DNA of 64,000 bases from an uncultured beta proteobacterium (lineage in GTDB: Bacteria; Pseudomonadota; Gammaproteobacteria; Burkholderiales; Burkholderiaceae_C): NCBI GenBank assembly GCA_963741125.1, contig CAVUGY010000017.1, positions 35,786 to 99,785 on the forward strand, written 5' to 3'. Made by a program: the position numbers and the translations under genes. This document shows, in pieces, positions 123-48,041 of this stretch; within the stretch, counting starts at the first letter, position 1, and each line of letters opens with the position of its first letter. Below the pieces are notes generated by a model. It was given only the letters and a program-made list of their open reading frames with translations, was not told the DNA's origin and ran no database searches.

Positions 123-2370
123 ATGGGCGGATCGAAGCGAATTCGTGCGGCGGCTGCGGCCTGCTCTCGGCGCTGCTGCCGGCTGCGACAACAGCCCGAA
201 CCCCAAGGGCGCGAGGCGACGAACACGATGTTTATCGCGTTTCAGGAGCGCTCGCCGCGGCACCTCGACCCGACCGCCTCGTACTCGCTCAACGAAGTCC
301 CGTACATGTACGCGGTCTACGAGCCGCCCTACGCCTACCACTACCTGAAGCGCCCGTACGAGCTGGTGCCCAAGTCGGCCGAGGAGCTCGCGACGCCGCA
401 CTATCTCGACAAGGACGGCAAGCGCCTGCCCGATGACGCTCCCGGCGAACTGGTGGCCGAAAGCGAGTACGACGTCCATATCAGGCCGGGCATGCTCTAC
501 GCGCCGCACCCGGCATTCGCGAAGGATGCGCAAGGGCGACTACCTGTACCACGCGTTGACCGAGGCGCAAACGCGCGACAAGCATTCGCCGCTCGACTTC
601 GAGGACACCGGCACGCGCGAGCTGGTCGCCGACGACTTCGTCTACGCGCTCAAGCGCCACGCCACGCCGCGCATCGAGGCGCCGATCTACGGCATCTTCT
701 CCGAGTACGTGATCGGCCTGAAGGATTACGGCAAGCTGATCCGCGACGAAGACCTGAAGCTGCGCAAGGGCCTGGACCCGGCCGCGCTGGACAAACCCTT
801 CCTCGACTTTCGAAAGTATCCGCTGGCCGGCGCCGTGGCGCTCGACAAGCACACGTTCCGTATCCGCATCAAGGGCAAGTACCCGCAGTGGAAGTACTGG
901 ATGACGATGACCTTCACTGCGCCGGTGCCGTGGGAGGCCGACAAGTTCTATGCCCAGCCGGGCATGGCCAAGAACAGCCTGACGCTCGATGTGTGGCCGG
1001 TCGGTACCGGGCCGTTCATGGCTGGTCGAGTACGACCCGGATCGCCGCCACGTGCTGGTGCGCAACCCGAACTACCAGCGGCGCCACCTACCCGTGCGAG
1101 GGCATGCCCGGCGACAAGGAGGCGGGACTGCTCGCCGACTGCGGCAAGAAGACGCCGTTCATCGACAAGCTGGTGTTCAACATCGAGAAGGACAAGACGC
1201 CGCTGCGCGCCAAGTTCACGCAGGGCTTTCTCGACGTGCCCGAGATCGAGCGCACCGACTGGGGGCCTGACTTCCTGGCCGATGCGAACGACTCCGACGA
1301 GGTGCGCAAGCGATTCGACGAGCGGGGCATGCGCTTCCCGCAAAGCATCGAGCCGCAGAACTGGTACCTCGGCTTCAACTGGCTCGACCCGGTGGTCGGC
1401 AAGGGCGACACGCCGGCGCAGCAGGCGAAGAACCGCAAGCTGCGCCAGGCGCTGTCGATCGCGATCGACTGGGAGGAAGGCTACGGGCGCGTGTTCACGC
1501 AGAAGGCCGGCGAGGCGGCGCATGGGCCGCTGCCGGGTGGGCATGTTCGGCTCGCGCCACGGCACGCTCGAGGGCATGAACCCGGTGACGCACAAGCTGG
1601 TGGACGGGCGAGTCGTGCGCCGCTCGATCGACGAGGCCAAGGCGCTTGCTGGCCGAGGCCGGCTACCCCGACGGTCGCGATGCCAAGACCGGCAAGCCGC
1701 TGGTGCTGAACTACGACTACCAGCGCGTGCCAACGCCGGAATTCCGGGCCGAGCTCGACTGGATGGTCAAGCAGTTCGCGAAGCTCAACGTGCAGCTCGA
1801 GATCCGCGCCACCGACTACAACCAGTTCCAGGACAAGATGCTCAAGGGCAAGCAGCAGATCTTCTGGTGGGGCTGGTTCGCCGACTACCCGGACGCCGAG
1901 AACTTTCTGTTCCTGTTCTACGGCCCGAACTCGAAGGCGAAGTTCGAGGGCGAGAACACCGCGAACTACGACAACCCCGAGTACGACCGACGCTACAAGC
2001 AACTCGCGCTGCTCGACGACGGCCCGGCCAAGCAGAAGGCTGATCGACGAGATGGTCGACATCCTGCGCAAGGATGCGCCGTGGGCATTCGGCTACTTCC
2101 CGTATTCGGCGCGGCGCCTACCAGCAATGGGTGGGCAACGCGAAGTACGGCCTGTTCACCAACGACCGCGCGCTGTACTACAAGATCGACGCGTCGTTGC
2201 GCACGCGCCAGCAGGCCGAGTGGAACCCGCCGCACTACTGGCCGCTGGGGCTGTTGGCGCTGGCGAGTCTTGCGTTCGTCTGGCGTCGCACGGCGCGGCT
2301 TCGTGGCGCGCGAGCGCAAGACGGCTCTGCACGCAGACCGCGACGGCGACCGCAGGCGGCAAGCACCTGA
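123..2370 (+). CDS. ABC transporter periplasmic substrate-binding protein, family 5 (peptide/microcin; YejA-like lipoprotein); reading frame broken by at least 6 frameshifts
   Basis: Translation pieces across three frames (123.., 433.., 989.., 1646.., 2052.., 2074..) concatenate into one YejA/OppA-like protein: FIAFQERSPRHLDP..YSLNEVPYMYAVYEPPYAYHYLKRPYELVP, DYLYHALTEAQTRDKHSPLDFEDTG, FWWGWFADYPDAENFLFLFYGPNS. A possible lipobox ...GAAAGC is upstream in another frame. Confidence 0.6.
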
Positions 2371-2373
2371 GCC

Positions 2374-3362
2374 ATGCTCAACTACATCATTCGCCGCTGC
2401 CTGTACGGCGTGCTGGTCTTGCTCGGGCGTGAACCTGCTCACCTTCATGCTGTTCTTCACCGTCAACACGCCAGACGACATGGCGCGCCTGAACATCGGC
2501 GGCAAGCGCGTGACGCAGGAGCAGATTCTGAAGTGGAAGGTCGAGCGCGGCTACGACAAGCCGCTGTACTGGAACACGGCCGCGACAGGCGCGCACAGGC
2601 GACCGACACCATCTTCTGGGATCGCTCGGTCTCGCTGTTCGCGCTCGACTTCGGCCGCTCGGATTCGAAGAGCGCAACCGACATCGGCCACGAGATCCAG
2701 ACCCGCATGGTGGTGAGCCTGCAGCTGGCGGTGCCGCTTGTTCGTGCTTGCAGGTGATCGTGAGCGTCGGCATTCGCGCTGCTGCTCGTGTTCTTCAAGA
2801 ATTCGTCGATCGATTTCTGGGGCGTGGTGACCTGCGTGTTGATGCTGTCGATCAGCGCGCTGTTCTACATCATCGTCGGCCAGTTCATGTTTTCGCGCAT
2901 GTTCCACCTGGTGCCGATTTCGGGCTTCGAATCCGGGCTGGGACGCGGTGCGCTTCCTGGTGTTGCCGGTGCTGCTGTCGCTGCTGTCGAGATTGGGCAC
3001 CGAAGGGCGGCTGTACCGCGCGATGTTCCTCGAGGAGCTCGGCCGCGACTATGTGCGCACCGCACGCGCCAAGGGCCTCAGCGAGGCGCAAGGTGCTGTT
3101 CGATCATGTGCTGCGCAATGCGCTGATCCCGATCCTGACCAGCGCCGGCAGCTACTTGCCGTTCGTGTTTCTGGGCAGCCTGGTGTTCGAGAGCTTCTTC
3201 GGCATCCCGGGCCTGGGCGCGTACGTCATCGATGCGATCACGGGGCAGGACTTCGCGATCGTCCGCTCGATGGTCTTCGTCGGCTCGGTGATCTACGTCC
3301 TGAGCTACATCGTTATCGACGTGGCCTACACCTGGGTCGACCCGCGCGTGCGCCTCGCCTGA
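2374..3362 (+). CDS. ABC transporter permease (YejB/OppB-like), frameshifted
   Basis: N-term MLNYIIRRCLYGVLVLLG; internal LLTFMLFFTVNTPDDMARLNIGGKRVTQEQILKWKVERGYDKPLYW; C-term ..RTARAKGLSE..VLFDHVLRNALIPILTSAGSYLPFVFLGSLVFESFFGIPGLG..IVRSMVFVGSVIYVLSYIVIDVAYTWVDPRVRLA (typical ABC TM signature), spread over three frames. Confidence 0.6.
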
Positions 3363-3377
3363 GCAGCGCCAGCCACC

Positions 3378-4833
3378 ATGCTGCCCAAGACTCGTCGTAC
3401 TCTGGTCCGATGTCGTCGTCATCGCGACGCTACTGCTGCTGATCGCCTATGCCTGGCGCATCCACGGCAGCGCGAACCTGCGCGCGACCTGGATGAAAGT
3501 GCTGCGTGATCGCGCGGCCATCTGTTCGGCGGTCGTGCTGGTGTTGTTCTTCGCGGTCGCGGTGTTGGACAGCCTGCACTTCCGGCGCGCACTGGCGCAC
3601 GCGCCGAGAGCGGCGACGCGAACCAGTTGCAGGCATGGGGCACACGCACCGAATCGCTGCTCGATGTGCTTTCTCGAGCGGCAGATTGCAGGGCGCGAGA
3701 CGTCGTACTCCGCGCCGCTCTCGATTCGCGGCTTCACCAAGGATTCGGTCGAGGTCAACGGGCAGATCGAGCGCACGTTTCCGCGTCTCAAATACGGTGG
3801 CGAAGCGCTGGCCGACGACACGCAGTGGGTGGCTGATTTGCTGCACCGCGTCGGCATTGGCTTGTTTGCAGGGATCATCGTGACGCTTGTTTGCCGCAGT
3901 GCGGGATCGCGCGTGGCCGTAGCGCGCGCAAACCAAGTTCGATTCGTCGAGGCGTCTCGCATGCTCCTGCAGGGGCGCACCGATTTGCCGTTGCGCGCCG
4001 TCGTCGTCACGATGCTGGCACTCTGCGTCACTGTTCGGCCCGCTGTTGGCGCTGGCTCAGCACTACCATGTCTTCGGCACCGATCGCACCGGCAACGACG
4101 TGTTTTACCAGGCGCTAAAGAGCATTCGCACCGCGTTCGTGATCGGCACGCTGTCCACCATTGCGACCCTGCCGCTCGCAGTCGGGTTGGGGATCGTGTC
4201 GGGCTATCTGCGCGGCTGGGTCGACGAACTGGTGCAGTACCTCTACACCGTGCTGTCGTCGATTCCGAACGTGCTTGTTGATCGCTGCCTGCGTGCTGAT
4301 GATGCAGGTGTTCATCGACACCCACCCCGACATGTTCGAGACCGGCGCCGAGCGTTCCGACGTGCGCCTGTTTCTGCTGTGCGTGATCCTTGGGATGACC
4401 GGCTGGGCCACGCTGTGTCGGCTGCTGCGCGCCGAGACCATGAAGCTCAGTCAGCTCGAATACGTGCAGGCCGCCACCGCGTTCGGTGTGCGGTCGCTGC
4501 GCATCATGGCGCGCCACATCTTCCCGAATGTGGTGCACCTGATCATCATCACGACGGTGCTCGACTTCTCGGCGCTGATCCTGTACGAGGCGGTGCTGTC
4601 CTATGTCGGTGTCGGCGTCGATCCTTCGATGAACAGCTATCGGCGGCATGATCAACCTGGCACGCACCGAGATGAGTCGCGATCCGCTGGTCTGGTGGTC
4701 GTTCGCGGCTGCATTCGGCTTCATGGTCACGCTGGTGCTCGCGGCCAACCTCTTCGCCGACGGCGTGCGTGACGCCTTCGACCCTCGCGCGCGCAGCTTC
4801 CGCCCGCGCCGGCGCAGCCGAGCAGCGGCCTGA
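3378..4833 (+). CDS. ABC transporter permease (YejE/OppC-like), frameshifted
   Basis: Pieces in frames 3493.., 4046.., 4161.., 4648..: FGTDRTGNDVFYQALKSIRTAFVIGTLSTIATLPLAVGLGIVSGYLRGWVDELVQYLYTVLSSIPNVL, TGWATLCRLLRAETMKLSQLEYVQAATAFGVRSLRIMARHIFPNVVHLIIITTVLDFSALILYEAVLSYVGVGVDP. The start codon is uncertain. Confidence 0.55.
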
Positions 4834-4837
4834 CGCG

Positions 4838-6675
4838 ATGCTCGATATCGAAGAGCTCGAGGTCGCGCTCGATACCGACACCGGCCTGCTCAAGGCGATA
4901 GACGGCCTGTCACTCGCGATCCGGCGCGGCGAGACCTTTGCGCTGGTCGGCGAATCGGGTTGCGGCAAGAGCATGACCGCACTCGCGCTTTTGCGCCTGT
5001 TGCCCGACAACGGCAACGTCACGCACGGGCGGGTCAAGCTCGATGGGCAGCGACGTTCTGGCGCTGCCTGAGTCCGCGATGCGGGCGGTGCGCGGCGGGC
5101 GCATCGGCATGATTTTTCAGGAGCCGGCGACGAGTCTGAACCCGGTGATGCGCATCGGCGATCAGATTGTCGAAGCCATACGAGCCCACACGCCGCTGCG
5201 CGGTGCGGCTGCGCGCGCGAAAGCGATTGAATGGCTGCGCCGGGTCGGCATCCCTGAGCCGGAGCGCCGCATCGACGACTACCCGTTTCGAATGTCCGGC
5301 GGGCAGAAGCAACGCGTGATGATCGCGTTGACCTTGGCCGCCGCGCCTGACTTCCTGGTCGCCGACGAGCCGACCACGGCGCTAGACGTGACGATCCAGA
5401 AGCAGATCCTCGACTTGCTGCGCGATCTGCAGCGCGAGCAGGGCATGGGCATGCTGCTCATCACGCACGACCTGGCCGTTGTGTCGGACGTGGCTCAACA
5501 CGTGGCGCTGATGTACGCCGGGCAAATTATCGAAGTCGCGACCGCGGACGAGTTCTTCAAATCGCCCAAACATCCCTATGCACAGGCCTTGCTGCGCGCG
5601 TTGCCCGATGCCGCCCGGCGTGGTGAACCGCTGGCAGCCATTGCCGGCACGGTGCCGCCACTGACTCAAGCCTTCACCGGCTGCCGCTTTGCACCGCGCT
5701 GCGCCAGCGTCATGCCGCAGTGCGAGAGTTCATTGCCCGAGTTGATAGCGCAGAGTCCGACGCGAAGCGTGCGCTGTCTGCTCTATGGCCAAGCCGGGTC
5801 GCACACTGTGACTCGCGCGGCCGCTGTGGAATCAGTGACCCGCGCGGTACGTGATGCACCCACTGCGGTACCGCTGTTGTCGGTGCAGGACTTGTGCGTG
5901 CGCTTCCCGATCCGCAAAGGCTTGCTGCAGCGCGTGCGGGGCCACTTCGACGCCGTGGCCGGCGTTTCGCTCGATATTCTGCCGGGGCAGACGCTGGCAC
6001 TGGTGGGCGAATCTGGCTGCGGCAAGACAACGGTGGGCAAGGCCATCGTTCAATTGCTGCGCGGTCAAGCGGAGGTCAAGGGCCGGGCGCTGCTGGCAGG
6101 CGCCAACCTGTTCGAGCTGCAGGCAGAGGCGTTGCAGGCGGTGCGGCGTGACATCCAGATCATCTTCCAGGATCCGTTCTCGTCGCTCAACCCACGCATG
6201 CGTGTGTTCGACATTCTCGAGGAGGGCCTCATTGCGCTCCACCCCGACCTCACGGCAGGCGCGCGACGCGCGCGCTTGGAGAGGTTGATCGACCAAGTCG
6301 GCCTGCGCCGCGAAGCGCTGGCGCGCTTTCCGCACGAATTCAGTGGTGGCCAGCGCCAGCGAATCGCCATCGCCCGTGCGCTGGCCGTGCAGCCCAAGCT
6401 GATCGTCTGCGATGAGCCGACCTCGGCGCTTGACGTGTAGCGTGCAGGCGCAAATCTTGAACCTGCTCGACCAGTTGCAGCGCGAACTCGGCGTCGCCTA
6501 CCTGTTCATCACCCACAACATCGGTGTGGTGGAGTACATCGCCGACCAAGTGGCGGTGATGCAGGCCGGGCGAATCGTCGAGCAGGGTACAAGCGATGCG
6601 GTCCTGCTGCAGTCGCGCCAAGACTACACACGCACGTTGCTTGCTGCAGTGCCGCGACTGCCTGTCACTGCGTAA
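4838..6675 (+). CDS. ABC transporter ATP-binding protein with two fused ATPase domains (YejF-like), frameshifted near 5040 and 6438
   Basis: First domain Walker A GESGCGKS at 4960 and [27 protein letters not shown]; second domain [37 protein letters not shown]; C-term [29 protein letters not shown]. An in-frame stop/shift occurs at about 6438. Confidence 0.65.
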
Positions 6676-6883
6676 CGGCGCACACCCCAGGTGTTGCATC
6701 AAGCCAACGGCTCCGTCACGGGCTGCTTGGGGCTATTCCCTAGTGAAGGGGCCTCGCCCGGCGTCGACCCGCGTCGCGCACTGTCGAGAACCTTGACGCG
6801 AATCTAATGAATACGCCGCGTTGCGAGTCGCGGCGCCTCGTTGCGCATCGTCCACGGTGGAACGCGCTCAAGCCCGTTCTGCT

Positions 6884-7037
6884 GCGGCCACTACGGAGTT
6901 TCCCGAGAGAGAGCCCGTCCATTGCACTGTGACAATTGGTTTACATGCTCCACAAACAAGCTCCGGCGCATCCACGAAATTCGCCCGGTGTTTGCTTTGG
7001 GGCAAGGGTCTAGCGATCAATCCTCTTAGGAGACTCC
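6884..7037 (+). promoter_or_regulatory. Conserved 5' leader (copy 1) upstream of the TonB-dependent receptor gene; candidate cis-regulatory RNA
   Basis: About 150 nt immediately 5' of the start codon is roughly 65% identical to the leader of the downstream paralog (10140..10289). It starts with GCCACTACGGAGTT, contains GTGACAATT, and ends GGCAAGGG.T.TAGCGATCAA.C.T..TCTT.GGAGA...CATG. Confidence 0.35.
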
Positions 7038-9951
7038 ATGTTTAAGCGAACAAGAATCAGCAACAGCGTGCTGCTGGCGCTGGGCGGTGCCCTGCTGTCA
7101 CCGGCGACATTTGTCTTTGCACAGGCCGATGCCCAACGCATCGAGATCACAGGCTCCAACATCCGCCGTGTCGACGCAGAATCGGCGTCGCCGGTTCAGG
7201 TCATTACGAAGCAGGAAATCGACCAGGCCGGCAAGGGCACGGTCGCTGAATACCTGCAGACGCTCACGGCAGACGGCCAGGGGTCCGTGCCATTTACTTA
7301 CGGCCGCGGATTTTCAGGCGCCACGTCGTCGGGCATCTCGCTGCGTGGCCTGGGTGTCAATGCGACCCTAGTACTGATCAACGGCCGTCGGGTTACTTCT
7401 GCGGTGCTGGCCGACGACGCGCAGCGCAGCTATACCGACCTGAACCAGATTCCGTTGGAAGCCGTCGAACGTATCGAAGTGCTGAAAGATGGCGCGTCGT
7501 CGATCTATGGCTCTGACGCCGTCGCCGGCGTGGTGAACATCATCCTGAGGAGAAATTTCACCGGCACGGTGGGGAAGGTTACCTATGGTGTGTCGCAGGA
7601 AGGCGATGGCAAAGAGCCGCGCCTCGCCCTCACTCATGGATTCGGCGACATGGCCAAGGACGGCTACAACGTTCTGCTGAACGTCGAAGCCGGCAAGAAA
7701 GACCCGATCTACTATCGTGACCGCGCGGGACGCGGGTCAGTCGGCGTATCGGCGATTGGCCAGCCGCAATGGGGCTTCGACCCCAATGGCGGGCCGGGCA
7801 ACAACATCGGCCGCTATGGCGGCCAAGGATGGATTCAAGGGGACGGCGCAGGTAACCGGAGCAATAACACCTCCAACCCTTCATTTATCGGCAACGTTCG
7901 CAACCCTGTGACGCTGGACTATTACAGCCGCTCCGATCCCGCCGGCGTCGGTTTCACCCAGACCTTCCCGGGCGCGGGTACCTATTGCCTGGCCCACGCC
8001 AACCTGCCGCAGAACGATCCGGCGGGCGGCTGCATCACCGACCAGCGTCAAGCGCTCAATCAGATCCAGCCGAAGCACGAGACGGCTAGCTTCTTCGGCA
8101 GATTCTCCAAGCAGATCAACGCCGACATGGAGGGCTTTGTCGAGGTTGGCTACTATTCGACCGAGTCACGTGTCGAGGGGCTGGCAATCCCTCCGTCGAC
8201 AGCCTACTTCCCGACAAACGGGCTCGCGGTATCACAGACTGCAGCTACTCAACTGGGCGCCACCCACCCCGACAATCCATACTTCGGGACGGCGGCGAGG
8301 CTTTCCTACAACCCGCAATTTGACATCGGAAACACCGGCACGGATTCCAATGCGCACACCAGCCGCTTTCTTGCCGGCGTGAAGGGCACCTGGGCCAGTT
8401 GGGACTTCGACACCGCGTTGTCATTCTCGGAAGCGAAGCAGACGGATACGGCAACGAAGGTAATGAACTGGCGCGTGAAGAACGCACTGTTGAACCCGAC
8501 CGTTGCCAACGTTGCCGCCGCGACCGCGTTCAGCCCGGAATACGCTGCATTGCCGGCCGGTACCTTCTGGCGCATCGGCGAGAACGCAGGGTTGAACTCG
8601 GCGGCAATGTACGACGCTTTGCTGGACGACAAAGATCGCCAGGGCTCCTCGCGCCAATATGGGGTGGATATCAAGGTCTCGCGCGAGTTCGGCAAACTCG
8701 ACGGCGGCGCGATTGGCGTCGCCTTCGGTGCAGAAGTTCGGCATGAGGAAAGTAATTTGGGGTTTTGGGACGGACAGGGAAATTTCCAGGGCCTGTCCCT
8801 CACGGCCTATGGTGGCAATCGTGGCCTTGCGGCGGCTTACACCGAAGTCCTGCTGCCCGTTACAAAGCAACTGGAGTTGAATGCCGCCCTGCGCTTCGAC
8901 CACTACTCGGATGCGGGCAATTCCTGGACACCTAAGTTCGGCGCGAAGTGGAAGCCGAGCAATAGCCTGGCCGTCCGCGGGACCTACGCCCAGGGCTTCC
9001 GCGCGCCGTCGATACCAGAAATGACCGCCATCGCCGCATTCGGGGGCATTGTGGTCGACGACAACGCTCGCTGCGCCGCGCTTCTCGCCGCCGGCATTAC
9101 ACAGCCCACTGTCGATAACACGTGTAAGGGCATTGCACCGACCTTTGTGATTGCGGGTAACCCCAACCTCGATCCTGAGAAGTCGAAAAGCATGACGCTG
9201 GGTATCGTTTGGGACGTCACCCCAAAGACCAGCTTGACGGCGGACTTGTGGCAAATCAAGCGCTCAGGACTGATTGTCAATGAGGACGGGCAGACCGCAA
9301 TCGACGCAGGGCACTTGACGCGCGATCCGTCGCAGGCACTGGCGCCTGGAGACCCTGGAGCCATTTTGTCGGCTGCGGTGCTCTATGTGAACGCGAACGA
9401 AAGCTTGACGCGAGGCGTCGACGTGGAGTTCAAGCATCGCTGGGATCTGGACGGTGGCCTTGGCAGGTTGACCGCGGGCGCGACCTGGACGCATCTCATC
9501 ACGCAACGAGTGACTTTCGCAGATGGCTCTGTCCATGACTATGCGGGCACCCATGGCAACTGCGATATCACCAACTGCATCGGCTCGCCCAAGGATCGGA
9601 TCAGCATTGCCGCTACTGGGATTTGGGCCAATGGCGCCTGGGCGCGAACCTCAACTACCGCGGCACCATGGCCAATAAGTTCGAACAGGCCGACACGGGC
9701 TGCGCGGATAGCCTGTTGAACGGTGCAGATTTCCCGTCGGGCTGCACGGTCAAGTCGTTCACTACGGTCGGACGTCTCAGGTGCGTGGAGGATTGGCAAG
9801 AACTCCGAACTCTTCGGCTCGATCGCAAACATCTTTGATCGGGTTCCACCGCCTGATTTCCAGACCTACGGCGCCATCGGCTACAACCCACTGGATTACT
9901 CCGGTGCCATTGGCCGCATACTTCCGCATCGGTTTGAAATACCAGTTCTGA
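7038..9951 (+). CDS. TonB-dependent outer-membrane receptor (paralog 1); 3' end frameshifted (around 9620, 9720, 9900)
   Basis: Signal peptide MFKRTRISNSVLLALGGALLSPATFVFAQA; plug motifs DAESASPVQVITKQEIDQAG, TLVLINGRR, LEAVERIEVLKDGASSIYGSDAVAGVVNIILR; barrel region. The canonical C-terminal ..GRYFRIGLKYQF-stop is readable only after a +1 shift at about 9915. Confidence 0.7.
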
Positions 9952-10002
9952 GATCAACAGCGCTGCGGGCAACGCCTGCAGCAGCAATTGATCAAAGTCA
10001 GC

Positions 10003-10035
10003 CCACCGGGGCACTCCCGGTGGGCTTTTCTTTTC
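10003..10035 (+). terminator. Rho-independent terminator after TBDR paralog 1
   Basis: CCCACCGGGGCACTCCCGGTGGG hairpin followed by CTTTTCTTTT. Confidence 0.5.
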
Positions 10036-10139
10036 CAGGAGTAGCGACACACGGCGATGGCGCACGCGCATGTCTGCGCCAGTGAACCGAACAGTCCGCA
10101 CACCGATTCGGCACGCTTGCACGTCAAGTCGAACCGTTG

Positions 10140-10289
10140 TACAGGAGCCACTACGGAGTTCCCCGGGGATATGGCGACTCCGCGCCAACGTGACAATTCG
10201 CTTACACGCCCCTCAGACGAGCGCCATCCCGTTCACAAGATCGGCTCGCGGATTTGCTCTGAGGCAAGGGGTTATCGATCAACCTTTTC
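10140..10289 (+). promoter_or_regulatory. Conserved 5' leader (copy 2) upstream of TBDR paralog 2; candidate cis-regulatory RNA
   Basis: Aligns with 6884..7037: GCCACTACGGAGTTCCCCGG...GTGACAATTCGCTTACACGCCCC...GGCAAGGGGTTATCGATCAACCTTTTCTTGGGAGAATTCATG. Confidence 0.35.
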
Positions 10290-13076
10290 TTGGGAGAATT
10301 CATGTTCAAACGGACAACGATTAGCCGCTGCGCGCTGCTCGCCTTGGGTGGCATTCTGCTGGTACCGGCCGCAGCTGTGTTTGCACAAGACCAGCGCATC
10401 GAAGTTACGGGTTCGCGCATCAAGCGCATCGACGCCGAGACGGCGTCTCCGGTCCAGGTCCTGACCCGTGAGGACATCGAACGCACCGGCAAGCAGTCGA
10501 TTCAAGAAGTGCTTCGCGGGCTGACTGCCGACGGCGTGGGCTCGATCCCCTCGTCGTTCACCAACGGTTTCGCCTCCGGCTCGGCCGCCGTTTCGCTGCG
10601 CGGCCTGGGTGTCAACTCGACGCTGGTGCTGGTGAACGGTCGCCGCATGACGACCTACGGCCTGGCCGACGACGGCACCCGCAACTTCGTCGACCTCAAC
10701 TCGATTCCGATGGAGGCCATCGACCGTATCGAAGTGCTGAAGGACGGTGCATCGGCCATCTACGGTGCGGACGCGGTCGGCGGCGTGGTCAATGTCATCC
10801 TGCGCAAGAACTACACCGGTGGGTCGATCGGCGCCACCTACGGCCAGACGGGCAAGAGCGACGGCCAGACGACGCGGGCGTTCGGTACGTTCGGCTTCGG
10901 CAACCTCGACACCGACAAGTACAACGTCTTCGTCTCCGTCGAGGCGTCGCAGCAAAAGAACATCTTGTCGATCGACCGCGGCTTCATCGGCGCAGAGCGA
11001 CCTCACCTCCCTCGGCTATTTCGACACCACGAATGGCGCGAATCGTCCGTATTTCGGTGCCGGGCCGACGTCCAACTCGCCGTACGGTGTGATTCGAGAC
11101 CCTGTGACAAACGCGCGTGTGAACGTGATTCCCTGCGCGGCCACCTTGATCGACCCAAGCACCGGCTTGTGCCGCTCCAACTTGACGGCCGATACCGAGG
11201 TGCAACCCGCCATCGACCGGTTGAACTTCTTCGGTCGCGGCACAGTGCAGTTCTCGCCCGCGCTGACGGGCTATGCGGAGTTGGGATACTTCAATACCAA
11301 GTCGAAGTCCAACGGCACGCTGGGCGCAAACAACGACACGGGCGTCTACTTGCCGGGCGATCCCTTCAATCCGCTTGTCACGCACGACCCCATGGTTCTG
11401 CCGGCTGCGCATCCCGACAATCCGTTTGGCGTTGATCGGACCTTGTTCATTCGTCCGATGGAACTCGGCGGGCGCGACCAGAAGACCGACAACGAAGTCA
11501 CGCGGCTTGTTGCGGGTCTGCAGGGCACGGGCTACGGTTGGGACTTCGACACCGGTGTGTCGTATATCAAGAGCAAGTTGAAGAACCAGAACTTCGGCTT
11601 CATCATCTACGACCAGATGCAGGCCGCTCTGAATAACGGAACCTATCGCACTGACCAACCCCAACCTGACGGCCCCCAGTGTGTTGGCGGCAATTTCGCC
11701 GACGCTGGAGAACGAGCCGACCAGCTCGGTCAAGTCGATCGACTTCAGGGCCTCGCGCGACCTGATGAAATTGGAGGGTGGGCCGCTCGGCTTGGCGCTG
11801 GGCGCGGAAGCGCGTTGGGAAGACGCGAACACGCCGGCTGTGCCCGGCACCGATACGGCCTCGATCGTCGGCCTCGGCTACTCGGCGTTCAATTCCAGCC
11901 GCAAGGTGCAGGCGATATTCGGTGAATTGAACGCGCCGGTGACCAAGTGGCTCGAGCTCAATGGTGCGCTGCGGTATCGACAAGTACTCGGATTTCGGCA
12001 ATTCGACGACGCCGAAAATCGGGTTCAAGGCGCAGGCAACGGACAAATTCGCCATGCGCGGCACTTATTCCGAGGCGTTCCGCGCGCCCGGCCCGGCCGA
12101 AACCGGCGGCTCCAGCTTCGGTTTCACGACCTACGGCATCCTGTCGCAGGGCAATCCGAATATCCAGCCCGAGACGGCCAAGAGCTACACCTTGGGGCTG
12201 ATCCTCGAGCCGCTGGCCAGCACGAGCATGACCTTGGACTACTGGAAGGTCGATCGCAAGAACGAGATCGTGCAGGCTGATCCGAACTCGATCATCCCAG
12301 CCGGCCAGTGCGTCAATGCCTGCGATGGCACATTGGGCATGCCGGATTTGAGAAGCGCGCAAGTTGCGGGTGCGCAGCCCAATACATTCATGTATTACGA
12401 CGTGGATGGCACCCTCGGTACCGTCACTGGCTTCTACCGGAACGCGGCGAAGACGAAGACCGATGGCATCGACTTCGAGTTGCGATACAAGCTTGGCCTC
12501 GGCGACGCCGGCAAGTTATCGGGTCAGTTGAACTGGACCCACGTCAACAAGTTCCAGCGTACCGACGCAGACGGCAATACCCTGGAATACGCGGGCACGC
12601 ATGGCCCGCTCGTGCAGAGCGCAGGTGGTGGTGCACCGAAGGACAGAATTGCCTTGGCCTTGACATGGGATCGTGGCCCATGGTCGATGACCGGGGCGAT
12701 CAACTACGTGGGTCCGATCAAGGTCATCGACCATGTCGGCGAAACGACACCCTCGGACGGTAGCGGCACGATCACCAATGGCAACACGGGTGTCACCTAT
12801 CCGGACAACGGGCAATACAACTGCGGCGTGTTCGATACGAACGGCAATATCACCGGTGGGTGCAAGCTGCCGGCGTTCACGACCTTCGACCTGTTCTCGA
12901 GGTGGTCGCCGATGAAGAATCTGGACATCAACTTCTCGATCCAGAACCTGTTCGACAAGAAGGCACCGTTCGATCCGTACCTCACGCTTACCTACGGCAT
13001 CAACTACAACCAGACCTGGCACCAGGCCGGCGCCGTCGGACGGTTCTTTACGGTTGGGGCGAAGTACAGCTTCTGA
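10290..13076 (+). CDS. TonB-dependent outer-membrane receptor (paralog 2); frameshifted at about 10990, 11690, 11990
   Basis: MFKRTTISRCALLALGGILLVPAAAVFAQDQRIEVTGSRIKRIDAETASPVQVLTREDIERTGK.., TLVLVNGRRM, IEVLKDGASAIYGADAVGGVVNVILR; C-terminal ..GRFFTVGAKYSF stop at 13076. Pieces lie in frames 10290, 10747, 11681 and 11961. Confidence 0.7.
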
Positions 13077-20753: not shown

Positions 20754-20830
20754 CGGGGCGTAGCGCAGCTTGGTAGCGCGGCTGCTTTGGGAGCAGTAGG
20801 TCGCACGTTCGAATCGTGTCGCCCCGACCA
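20754..20830 (+). tRNA. tRNA-Pro (anticodon TGG)
   Basis: Cloverleaf: acceptor CGGGGCG/CGCCCCG, D arm GCGC-AGCTTGGT-AGCGC, anticodon loop TTTGGGA, T loop TTCGAAT, CCA encoded. Confidence 0.9.
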
Positions 20831-20852
20831 CCAAGCCCCTTACCGGGACCGG

Positions 20853-20929
20853 CTGCCCGTAGCTCAACTGGATAGAGCAGTTGCCTTCTAAGCAACAGGT
20901 CGGGGGTTCGAGTCCCTCCGGGCAGACCA
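20853..20929 (+). tRNA. tRNA-Arg (anticodon TCT)
   Basis: Acceptor CTGCCCG/CGGGCAG, D loop AACTGGATA, anticodon loop CTTCTAA, T loop TTCGAGT, CCA encoded; resembles argU-type tRNA. Confidence 0.9.
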
Positions 20930-47893: not shown

Positions 47894-47981
47894 TGGCGTC
47901 CGGCGGAGGGAGCGGGATTCGAACCCGCGGGGGGCTATTAACCCCCACACGCTTTCCAGGCGTGCGACTTAAACCGCTCAT
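47894..47981 (-). tRNA. tRNA-Ser (anticodon GGA), long variable arm
   Basis: Reverse complement: GGAGGGA-TG-GAT-GAGCGGTTTAA-GTC-G-CACGC-CTGGAAA-GCGTG-TGGGGGTTAATAGCCCCCC (variable stem-loop)-GCGGG-TTCGAAT-CCCGC-TCCCTCC-G. CCA is not encoded. Confidence 0.85.
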
Positions 47982-48041
47982 CCATCCCTCCGCAGGGACT
48001 GCGTGCTCGTCGATCCCTAGTGGGACCTGCACGCGCGAATC

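Follow-up and report, generated by a model that had tools for sequence, protein, structure and literature searches.

A conserved leader with a covarying hairpin ahead of TonB-dependent receptor genes in the Burkholderiales

Two TonB-dependent receptor (TBDR) genes, TBDR1 and TBDR2, lie in tandem on a 64,000-nt stretch of contig CAVUGY010000017.1, from an uncultured beta proteobacterium; the whole stretch is referred to as the window. Each gene is preceded by a related leader, which a reading made before any database search (the sequence-only reading) had proposed to be a riboswitch-like cis-regulatory RNA. We found that the leader is conserved ahead of related receptor genes and contains a long imperfect hairpin, P1, whose two arms change together. 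P1 is a sense-strand RNA structure, neither a DNA palindrome nor an antisense transcript. Perhaps P1, lying close to the 5' end of the mRNA, stabilises it or docks a trans-acting factor, acting with a promoter module and not as a metabolite riboswitch; this is the explanation that we favour, tentatively, as one that is quite possible but still short of probable.

Leader 1 occupies positions 6884-7037 and leader 2 positions 10147-10301, and the two are 62-70% identical over approximately 150 nt (62-67% by sliding-window comparison). The sequence-only reading had described leaders about 65% identical with conserved blocks, and this was borne out; its coordinates hold for leader 1 but not for leader 2, given there as 10140-10289, since the ATG of TBDR2 is at 10302. 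A blastn comparison of the leaders gave 69.5% identity over 151 nt, and nhmmer with leader 1 as the query against the whole window matched 10147-10299 (E = 2e-14). The exact 14-mer GCCACTACGGAGTT is present at 6887-6900 and 10147-10160 and always has at least three mismatches elsewhere in the window, GTGACAATTnGnTTACA is shared at 6929-6945 and 10190-10206 (chance expectation 0.3 matches), and GGCAAGGGnnTAnCGATCAA at 7001-7020 and 10263-10282 (chance expectation 0.1). The coding regions have diverged substantially, as had also been claimed. At the four-fold degenerate sites of the 216 best-conserved TBDR1/TBDR2 codons 46% are identical, where composition alone predicts 34%, and the DNA of the barrel domains is 35-50% identical. 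These values argue that the likeness of the leaders is not the result of neutral decay after duplication. The conservation of the leader is functional and reaches into relatives. The elements of the two leaders are as follows.

6895-6904, forward strand: upstream box of leader 1, GGAGTTTCCC (family form GGnWTWCCC), putative activator or promoter DNA element
6929-6945, forward strand: 5' box of leader 1, GTGACAATTGGTTTACA, with GACAAT at 6931-6936, TTTACA and the putative start A6943
6947-7003, forward strand: P1 of leader 1, about 22 bp, imperfect; loop 6970-6981, AUCCACGAAAUU, a diverged form of UUCACAA
7007-7018, forward strand: mini-hairpin P2 of leader 1, GGUC-UAGC-GAUC, recognised by eye
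10155-10164, forward strand: upstream box of leader 2, GGAGTTCCCC, putative DNA element
10190-10206, forward strand: 5' box of leader 2, GTGACAATTCGCTTACA, with GACAAT at 10192-10197 and the putative start A10204
10208-10265, forward strand: P1 of leader 2; apical loop region 10231-10241, GUUCACAAGAU, the canonical loop
10270-10280, forward strand: mini-hairpin P2 of leader 2, GGUU-AUC-GAUC, recognised by eye, with an alternative 8-bp pairing AAGGGGUU/AACCUUUU

TBDR1 is a member of a large Burkholderiales family, and its relatives were sampled at 80 genomic and 80 metagenomic loci. A hidden Markov model built from the two window leaders was iterated with nhmmer, giving about 40 significant matches, and was followed by a covariance model (R1). 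Searching both strands of 1.42 Mb of related Burkholderiales DNA with R1 produced 44 matches, all of them on the sense strand and ending at the ATG of a TBDR paralog whose product begins M[FL][KR][KR]T; there were no matches away from TBDR starts in these 1.42 Mb. Two further matches were obtained on a separate contig outside the training set, one ahead of each of its two TBDR genes. The carriers include Piscinibacter, Rhizobacter, Ideonella and Rubrivivax as well as Burkholderiaceae metagenome-assembled genomes, and at loci L081, L082, L085, L088, L125 and L132 the leader is doubled in tandem TBDR arrays, as it is in the window. Leader identity is 57-59% for downstream protein identities of 25-45% and of 60-75% alike, and because it does not follow protein identity we consider the leader to be under purifying selection and common to very old paralogs. 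Conservation upstream of related receptors, by which the sequence-only reading had proposed to be judged, is therefore present, about 40 related genes carrying the leader.

P1 is about 57 nt long and has 22-24 bp, and nearly every member of the family folds alike when folded singly. The apical loop UUCACAA(R)A is conserved, with YACAA found in 28 of the 39 distinct members. Against dinucleotide shuffles the mean folding z was -2.35 for P1 versus -0.04 for an upstream control segment, and relatives taken individually ranged from -2.2 to -6.8. The first window copy has a minimum free energy of -24.5 kcal/mol, with z = -2.8 in the sense orientation versus -0.4 in antisense. The two window copies already differ by compensatory changes: the basal stem is CCUCAGA/UCUGAGG in copy 2 and CUCCAC/UUGGGG in copy 1, and higher in the hairpin CGAGC/GCUCG in copy 2 corresponds to CAAGC/GUUUG in copy 1.

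For the family as a whole, the P1 pair list was taken as a vote over single-sequence folds and scored on a MAFFT alignment made blind to structure. On that alignment 74.4% of cells pair, compared with 35-43% when the 3' partners were slid by 1-3 columns, and 21 of the 24 P1 pairs vary on both sides. The covariation score was 0.339, against 0.08-0.13 for the slid partners. Shuffled controls gave 0.243 +/- 0.013, none of 500 shuffles reaching the observed value, although the shuffling ignores phylogeny and can overstate significance. An alignment fitted to the model gave 76.7% paired cells and a score of 0.395. Because the P1 structure had been derived from the same sequences on which it was tested, hold-out tests were made. 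Of the cells in the remaining sequences, 61% can form the pairs taken from one subgroup (32-48% when slid), and in the reverse hold-out 78% of cells pair (34-59% when slid). Pairs derived solely from non-window sequences form at 79% in copy 1 (27-45% when slid) and at 67% in copy 2 (26-50% when slid). G-U and U-G pairs are frequent, for instance at 24-84, where 20 sequences have UG, and at 45-61, where 14 have GU. These pairs, and the better folding of copy 1 in the sense orientation, place P1 on the mRNA strand. In this one TBDR family the distance from the hairpin to the start codon is always the same. Covariation of a structured RNA, which the sequence-only reading had suggested looking for, is thus found in P1 and in the sense orientation.

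Directly 3' of P1, nearly all members have the mini-hairpin P2, of 4-7 bp as judged by eye, with the arm variants GAUC/GAUC, GUUC/GAAU, GUCC/GGAU, AGGU/ACCU and CCAA/UUGG (also by eye). P2 is followed by a pyrimidine-rich linker, the Shine-Dalgarno sequence (SD) and the AUG. One subgroup (L022, L106, L107, L113, L097, L109, L091, L090, L100, L105, L155 and L099) has a 9-nt insertion, corresponding to about 7007-7020 in the window, that duplicates the GAUC arm of P2 (GGUCUAUAGAUCUKUCGAUCRAA), and an SD of GGGGGA rather than AGGAG. A scan of all columns for covariation and helices returned nothing beyond sub-helices of P1 and a weak 4-5-bp helix between linker and SD, and no pseudoknot. The 5' box (ACAAUUCC...) was considered as an anti-SD, which looked attractive in L113, L105 and L104, and was rejected (RNAduplex energies of -4.9 kcal/mol for matched and -5.2 kcal/mol for mismatched combinations).

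Whether such a leader is a riboswitch was examined from several sides. Rfam 15 holds 4227 models, the cobalamin, thiamine pyrophosphate (TPP) and other leaders included. At gathering thresholds the window scan reported three tRNAs only; at E <= 10 the conserved elements of both leaders were unmatched, a few matches at noise level covering the TBDR1 terminator or falling at the start codon (E 5.8); and five representative related loci gave no match at E <= 1. This agrees with the sequence-only reading, which had matched the leader to none of the riboswitch signatures that it considered. The earlier view that putative leader peptides are not conserved also held, since neither a conserved leader peptide nor an N-terminal extension was found: the ATG in TACATG is present only in some members and its frames differ. 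Neither leader contains an intrinsic terminator, and there is no U-run after P1 or P2. We found no covarying pairing that would sequester the SD or serve as an alternative to it, and no multi-helix junction or pseudoknot, the architecture being one long imperfect hairpin followed by a mini-hairpin. Of the proposal of a riboswitch-like cis-regulatory RNA, the conserved and covarying sense-strand structure stands, but the junction, terminator and covarying SD pairing are absent, and since there is neither a terminator nor a covarying SD-sequestering helix the riboswitch part is only partly supported. Large surveys of bacterial structured RNAs, so far as they can be searched, mention TonB-dependent genes nowhere. 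We rate the leader as a lineage-restricted cis-regulatory motif that matches no described RNA family.

Cobalamin riboswitches at btuB (RF00174) and TPP riboswitches are likewise cis-acting structured leaders directly before TBDR genes. Unlike these, the present leader has no multi-stem aptamer, B12 box or expression platform, in addition to having no Rfam match at E <= 10. P1 and P2 might nevertheless form the aptamer of a new riboswitch class that senses the substrate or a related metabolite and controls translation of the receptor. The structured leader is conserved and always stands ahead of one transporter family, with covariation behind it; some stem and loop nucleotides are conserved beyond what pairing needs; the scan flagged the weak helix between pyrimidine linker and SD; and the gene context is coherent, with an Opp-type ABC transporter or LD-carboxypeptidase gene upstream and tonB-exbBD downstream. 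Against this, the structure is a single long hairpin, no known class was matched, and the highest conservation lies in the apical loop and in a box that is probably untranscribed or single-stranded, a pattern more typical of recognition by a macromolecule. We consider a new riboswitch class unlikely. A related proposal would make the leader the sensor of a hitherto undescribed post-transcriptional switch dedicated to TBDR/TonB uptake, either as a substrate-binding hairpin riboswitch or as the site of a dedicated RNA-binding regulator; this is doubtful too. Under it the imported substrate would possibly be derived from peptides or muropeptides, since genes for an Opp-type ABC transporter and an LD-carboxypeptidase lie alongside, and the leader would have been kept or exchanged among paralogs otherwise only 25% identical.

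The 5' part of the leader has a different character. In an ungapped alignment of 31 non-redundant leaders, anchored on the invariant ACAAT, the GGnWTWCCC box lies at -36..-27 relative to GACAAT in 29 of the 31. The family 5' box is GTGACAATTCnTTTACA, with ACAAT invariant (2.0 bits) and TTTACA more than 85% conserved. The 26 bp between box and GACAAT are constant in length and unconserved in sequence, and this segment folds no more stably than expected (mean z = -0.23, against -0.04 for the control). The invariant length and the lack of excess folding point to protein-DNA geometry and not to RNA. An upstream RNA hairpin, 'P0' (GGG...CCC plus spacer), was rejected on the same z value and because a fixed length suits a DNA motif. 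GACAAT agrees with TATAAT at four of six positions, A2 and T6 included. Six AT-rich base pairs come next, and then a T-A step, likewise conserved, positioned as a start site would be. No conserved -35 element was found, where a sigma-70 promoter would have one across a 16-18-bp spacer; the GGnWTWCCC box stands 26 bp upstream instead. A consensus scan reported no sigma-70 promoter in either leader. These two negatives suggest a promoter that depends on an activator or bears an operator. Promoters of the extracytoplasmic function, sigma-54 and sigma-32 types were compared by eye and the conserved positions did not fit. At tandem loci the terminator of the upstream gene ends only 70-95 nt before GACAAT, which leaves little space for another promoter.

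Taken in this way, the upstream third (GCCACTACGGAGTT / GGAGTTTCCC, probably GTGACAAT) appears from its sequence to behave as promoter DNA, and for that reason the transcribed leader is probably about 95-125 nt long and not 150 nt. The '150-nt leader' of the sequence-only reading is therefore accurate for the conserved stretch but probably not for the transcript. Further upstream, 5' of the GGnWTWCCC box, a weakly conserved (CA)TCAAGC block is present at window positions 6868-6873 and 10124-10129, to which the faint additional similarity noticed earlier (TCAAG...) corresponds. The block also occurs in a Rhizobacter-like subgroup, lies about 55-60 nt upstream of GACAAT at related loci, and may be another protein-binding site.

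These features could be read as DNA only, that is, as a duplicated promoter with operators, such as a Fur-family-like 7-2-7 site TGACAAT-NN-ATTTACA over the -10 plus sites further downstream, the hairpin being a dyad symmetry that arose incidentally. TBDR promoters are often metalloregulated. The upstream elements are rigidly spaced, and the 5' box, AT-rich and in part palindromic, does not vary at positions where it departs from the -10 consensus; Fur-regulated TBDR promoters similarly have an AT-rich, partly palindromic conserved box over a -10-like hexamer. There is also a loose likeness to Fur half-sites with a non-canonical spacer: the 7-2-7 arrangement comes nearer than the canonical box, with 3-7 mismatches of 14 (median 4/14 against a background of 8). 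Unlike in Fur promoters, however, the canonical 19-bp box GATAATGATAATCATTATC (a 7-1-7 inverted repeat) is absent, with no matches at three or fewer mismatches and best alignments of 7-11 mismatches of 19 in the family leaders; the half-site spacing is 2 and not 1, and an invariant C distinguishes GACAAT from GATAAT. The arms of P1 vary and yet stay complementary, 21-22 of 24 pairs having changed on both sides, and the frequent G-U pairs would be mismatches in a DNA palindrome, while copy 1 folds better in the sense orientation. We regard a purely DNA-level explanation as improbable.

We return to the proposal that P1 acts as a 5'-proximal hairpin behind a promoter module. Transcription would be driven by an activator-dependent or operator-bearing promoter, with GGnWTWCCC 26 bp upstream of the -10-like GACAAT, and would start at the A that follows the 6-bp AT-rich stretch (A6943 in leader 1, A10204 in leader 2). 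The resulting 5' untranslated region (UTR) would be about 95 nt long, with P1 beginning about 4 nt after the putative start. From there P1 may act post-transcriptionally by shielding the message from near its 5' end, and its loop may be presented to a trans-acting partner, either a small RNA or an RNA-binding protein. Control would in this way be common to all TBDR paralogs carrying the leader and to the tonB-exbBD genes that follow some of them.

Parts of this scheme have precedents. The small RNAs OmrA/B target cirA, fepA and fecA in enterobacteria. Several TBDR mRNAs of Caulobacter have 5' UTRs through which sibling small RNAs (SisA-D, with the CrfA sponge) regulate them (PMC12559287). As in the window, paralogs targeted in this way share 5'-UTR sequence, and there one trans-acting RNA co-regulates them post-transcriptionally (PMC12559287). 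The Caulobacter and OmrA/B targets are, however, short single-stranded stretches near the start codon, unlike the conserved 57-nt hairpin described here, and the present lineage is Sphaerotilaceae-like Burkholderiales and neither Caulobacter nor an enterobacterium. Stem-loops a few nucleotides from the 5' end of an mRNA protect it against 5'-end-dependent decay, as in E. coli ompA. The likeness to ompA extends to the kind of product, an outer-membrane protein, and to a stem-loop that would here also lie a few nucleotides from the 5' end. The ompA hairpins differ in showing no sequence kinship and in requiring no conserved loop; here the loop is conserved.

Besides the blindness of the shuffle control to phylogeny, several observations weigh against our proposal. 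The second window copy is thermodynamically unremarkable (minimum free energy -19.8 kcal/mol, z = -1.1). RNAalifold yields no consensus structure on either alignment, apparently because bulge registers differ among subgroups, and about 23% of P1 cells are unpaired, the registers of the helix differing between subgroups. GACAAT is invariant even where sigma-70 tolerates change, which hints at a different reader, for example an operator protein or recognition at the RNA level. A start upstream of GACAAT could put the AU-rich box in the RNA and make P1 internal. The ACA-containing motifs are spaced 11 and 42 bp apart and can be read as sites on the same face of the DNA helix. Finally, the complement of the loop, YTTGTGAAC, matches only the leader's own antisense strand in the window, and no partner small RNA was found within it.

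A trans-acting partner would not be needed if P1 were mainly a processing site, either a duplex substrate of RNase III or an RNase E entry at the AU-rich box. With about 22-24 bp, the imperfect duplex has the length that RNase III needs, and the AU-rich ACAAUUCAUUU immediately 5' of the stem-loop resembles RNase E/Hfq-type sites, if it is transcribed. The conserved apical loop, with YACAA in most of the distinct members, is not needed by RNase III, and we think it rather improbable that processing without a specific partner is the main role. That the likeness of the leaders is a neutral remnant of tandem duplication, or a gene-conversion tract at the 5' ends, is scarcely credible: the adjoining plug-domain DNA is also 60-80% identical between the two window genes and both genes look degraded, but neighbouring synonymous sites are near saturation, the leader precedes about 40 other TBDR genes including paralogs down to 25% protein identity, and conversion would have left near-identity and not 65% with compensatory changes.

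TBDRs decide which scarce nutrients environmental Burkholderiales take up, and to our knowledge little is known of their regulation beyond iron and Fur and the B12 and TPP riboswitches. The leader would mark a co-regulated uptake regulon made of diverged paralogs and tonB-exbBD operons. Its 7-nt conserved loop, compensable stems and rigid promoter geometry provide handles towards the regulator and perhaps the substrate. Even as no more than a stabilising hairpin with a promoter, it would help in annotating genomes of this clade.

In most carriers, the TBDR gene or genes lie between guaA-tadA-ldcA (ldcA encoding LD-carboxypeptidase) and tonB-exbB-exbD-exbD. Upstream of the receptors in the window and at seven other loci stands an Opp/Dpp-type ABC transporter. 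No tonB-exbBD was found adjoining the window receptors. The 10-kb neighbourhoods contain the housekeeping genes guaA, tadA, ldcA, adk, kdsB and lpxK as well as tonB-exbBD, and no gene for a regulator or transcription factor was found in them. At L161 and L163 the gene order is conserved and runs guaB/guaA-tadA-ldcA-TBDR(s)-tonB-exbB-exbD-exbD, followed on the opposite strand by SDR-adk-kdsB-trm112-lpxK-exbD-exbB. The receptor cluster of these two loci sits in a neighbourhood of housekeeping and lipopolysaccharide-biosynthesis genes, beside a second exbBD pair.

Some members of the receptor family do not have the leader. It was not found at the orthologues in Ramlibacter and Caenimonas, at distant relatives in Massilia, Lysobacter and others, or at the TBDR2 orthologue in Piscinibacter (L015). 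The Ramlibacter and Caenimonas orthologues, whose products begin MKTGTQRF, have in common a different upstream stretch, about 200 nt long and conserved, TTGGGCAACAAACAGG ... GTGAC ... GTGTAAAAAC. It is present at L103 (3801-4003) and, by nhmmer with E values from 1e-54 to 3e-6, at 10 further loci, L017, L009, L023, L016, L004-L006, L118, L008 and L115. Possibly the same receptor family has here a second leader or promoter module, unrelated to the first. The Roseateles-type orthologue (L018/L120) has, some 200 nt ahead of its TBDR start (4001), a CACAAT box and then, inside the leader, a hairpin that resembles a terminator and carries seven consecutive T residues, CCGGACACC...GGTGTTTTTTT. This hairpin may be a transcription attenuator that replaces P1.

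The receptor genes of the window and the terminator between them are as follows.

7028-7040, forward strand: SD of TBDR1, AGGAG at 7028-7032, and ATG at 7038
7038-9951, forward strand: coding sequence of TBDR1, its frame broken near the 3' end
10000-10036, forward strand: intrinsic terminator of TBDR1, a 12-bp GC-rich stem and a T-run
10292-10304, forward strand: SD of TBDR2, GGGAG at 10292-10296, and ATG at 10302
10302-13076, forward strand: coding sequence of TBDR2, with three frameshifts, near 10991, at 11651-11685 and at 11979-11995

Plug and barrel domains were detected in both genes, and the likeness to solved structures (CirA, BtuB and FepA) is limited to the plug domain. The terminator at 10000-10036 splits TBDR1 and TBDR2 into two transcription units. 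Of the strong terminators that the sequence-only reading had placed before each leader, the one before leader 2 is this element, but the sequence upstream of leader 1 yielded no terminator-like site. The Opp-type ABC transporter genes further upstream (123-6675) likewise appear split over several frames. The frameshift sites of the uptake locus are not at homopolymers, and the truncated product of 893 aa is found again in an independent Logan assembly, that of run ERR12035933. The frameshifts are either a true pseudogenisation or a local assembly error. Elsewhere in the window, tRNA-Pro(TGG) and tRNA-Arg(TCT) are in tandem at 20754-20929 on the forward strand, and tRNA-Ser(GGA) is at 47902-47991 on the reverse strand.

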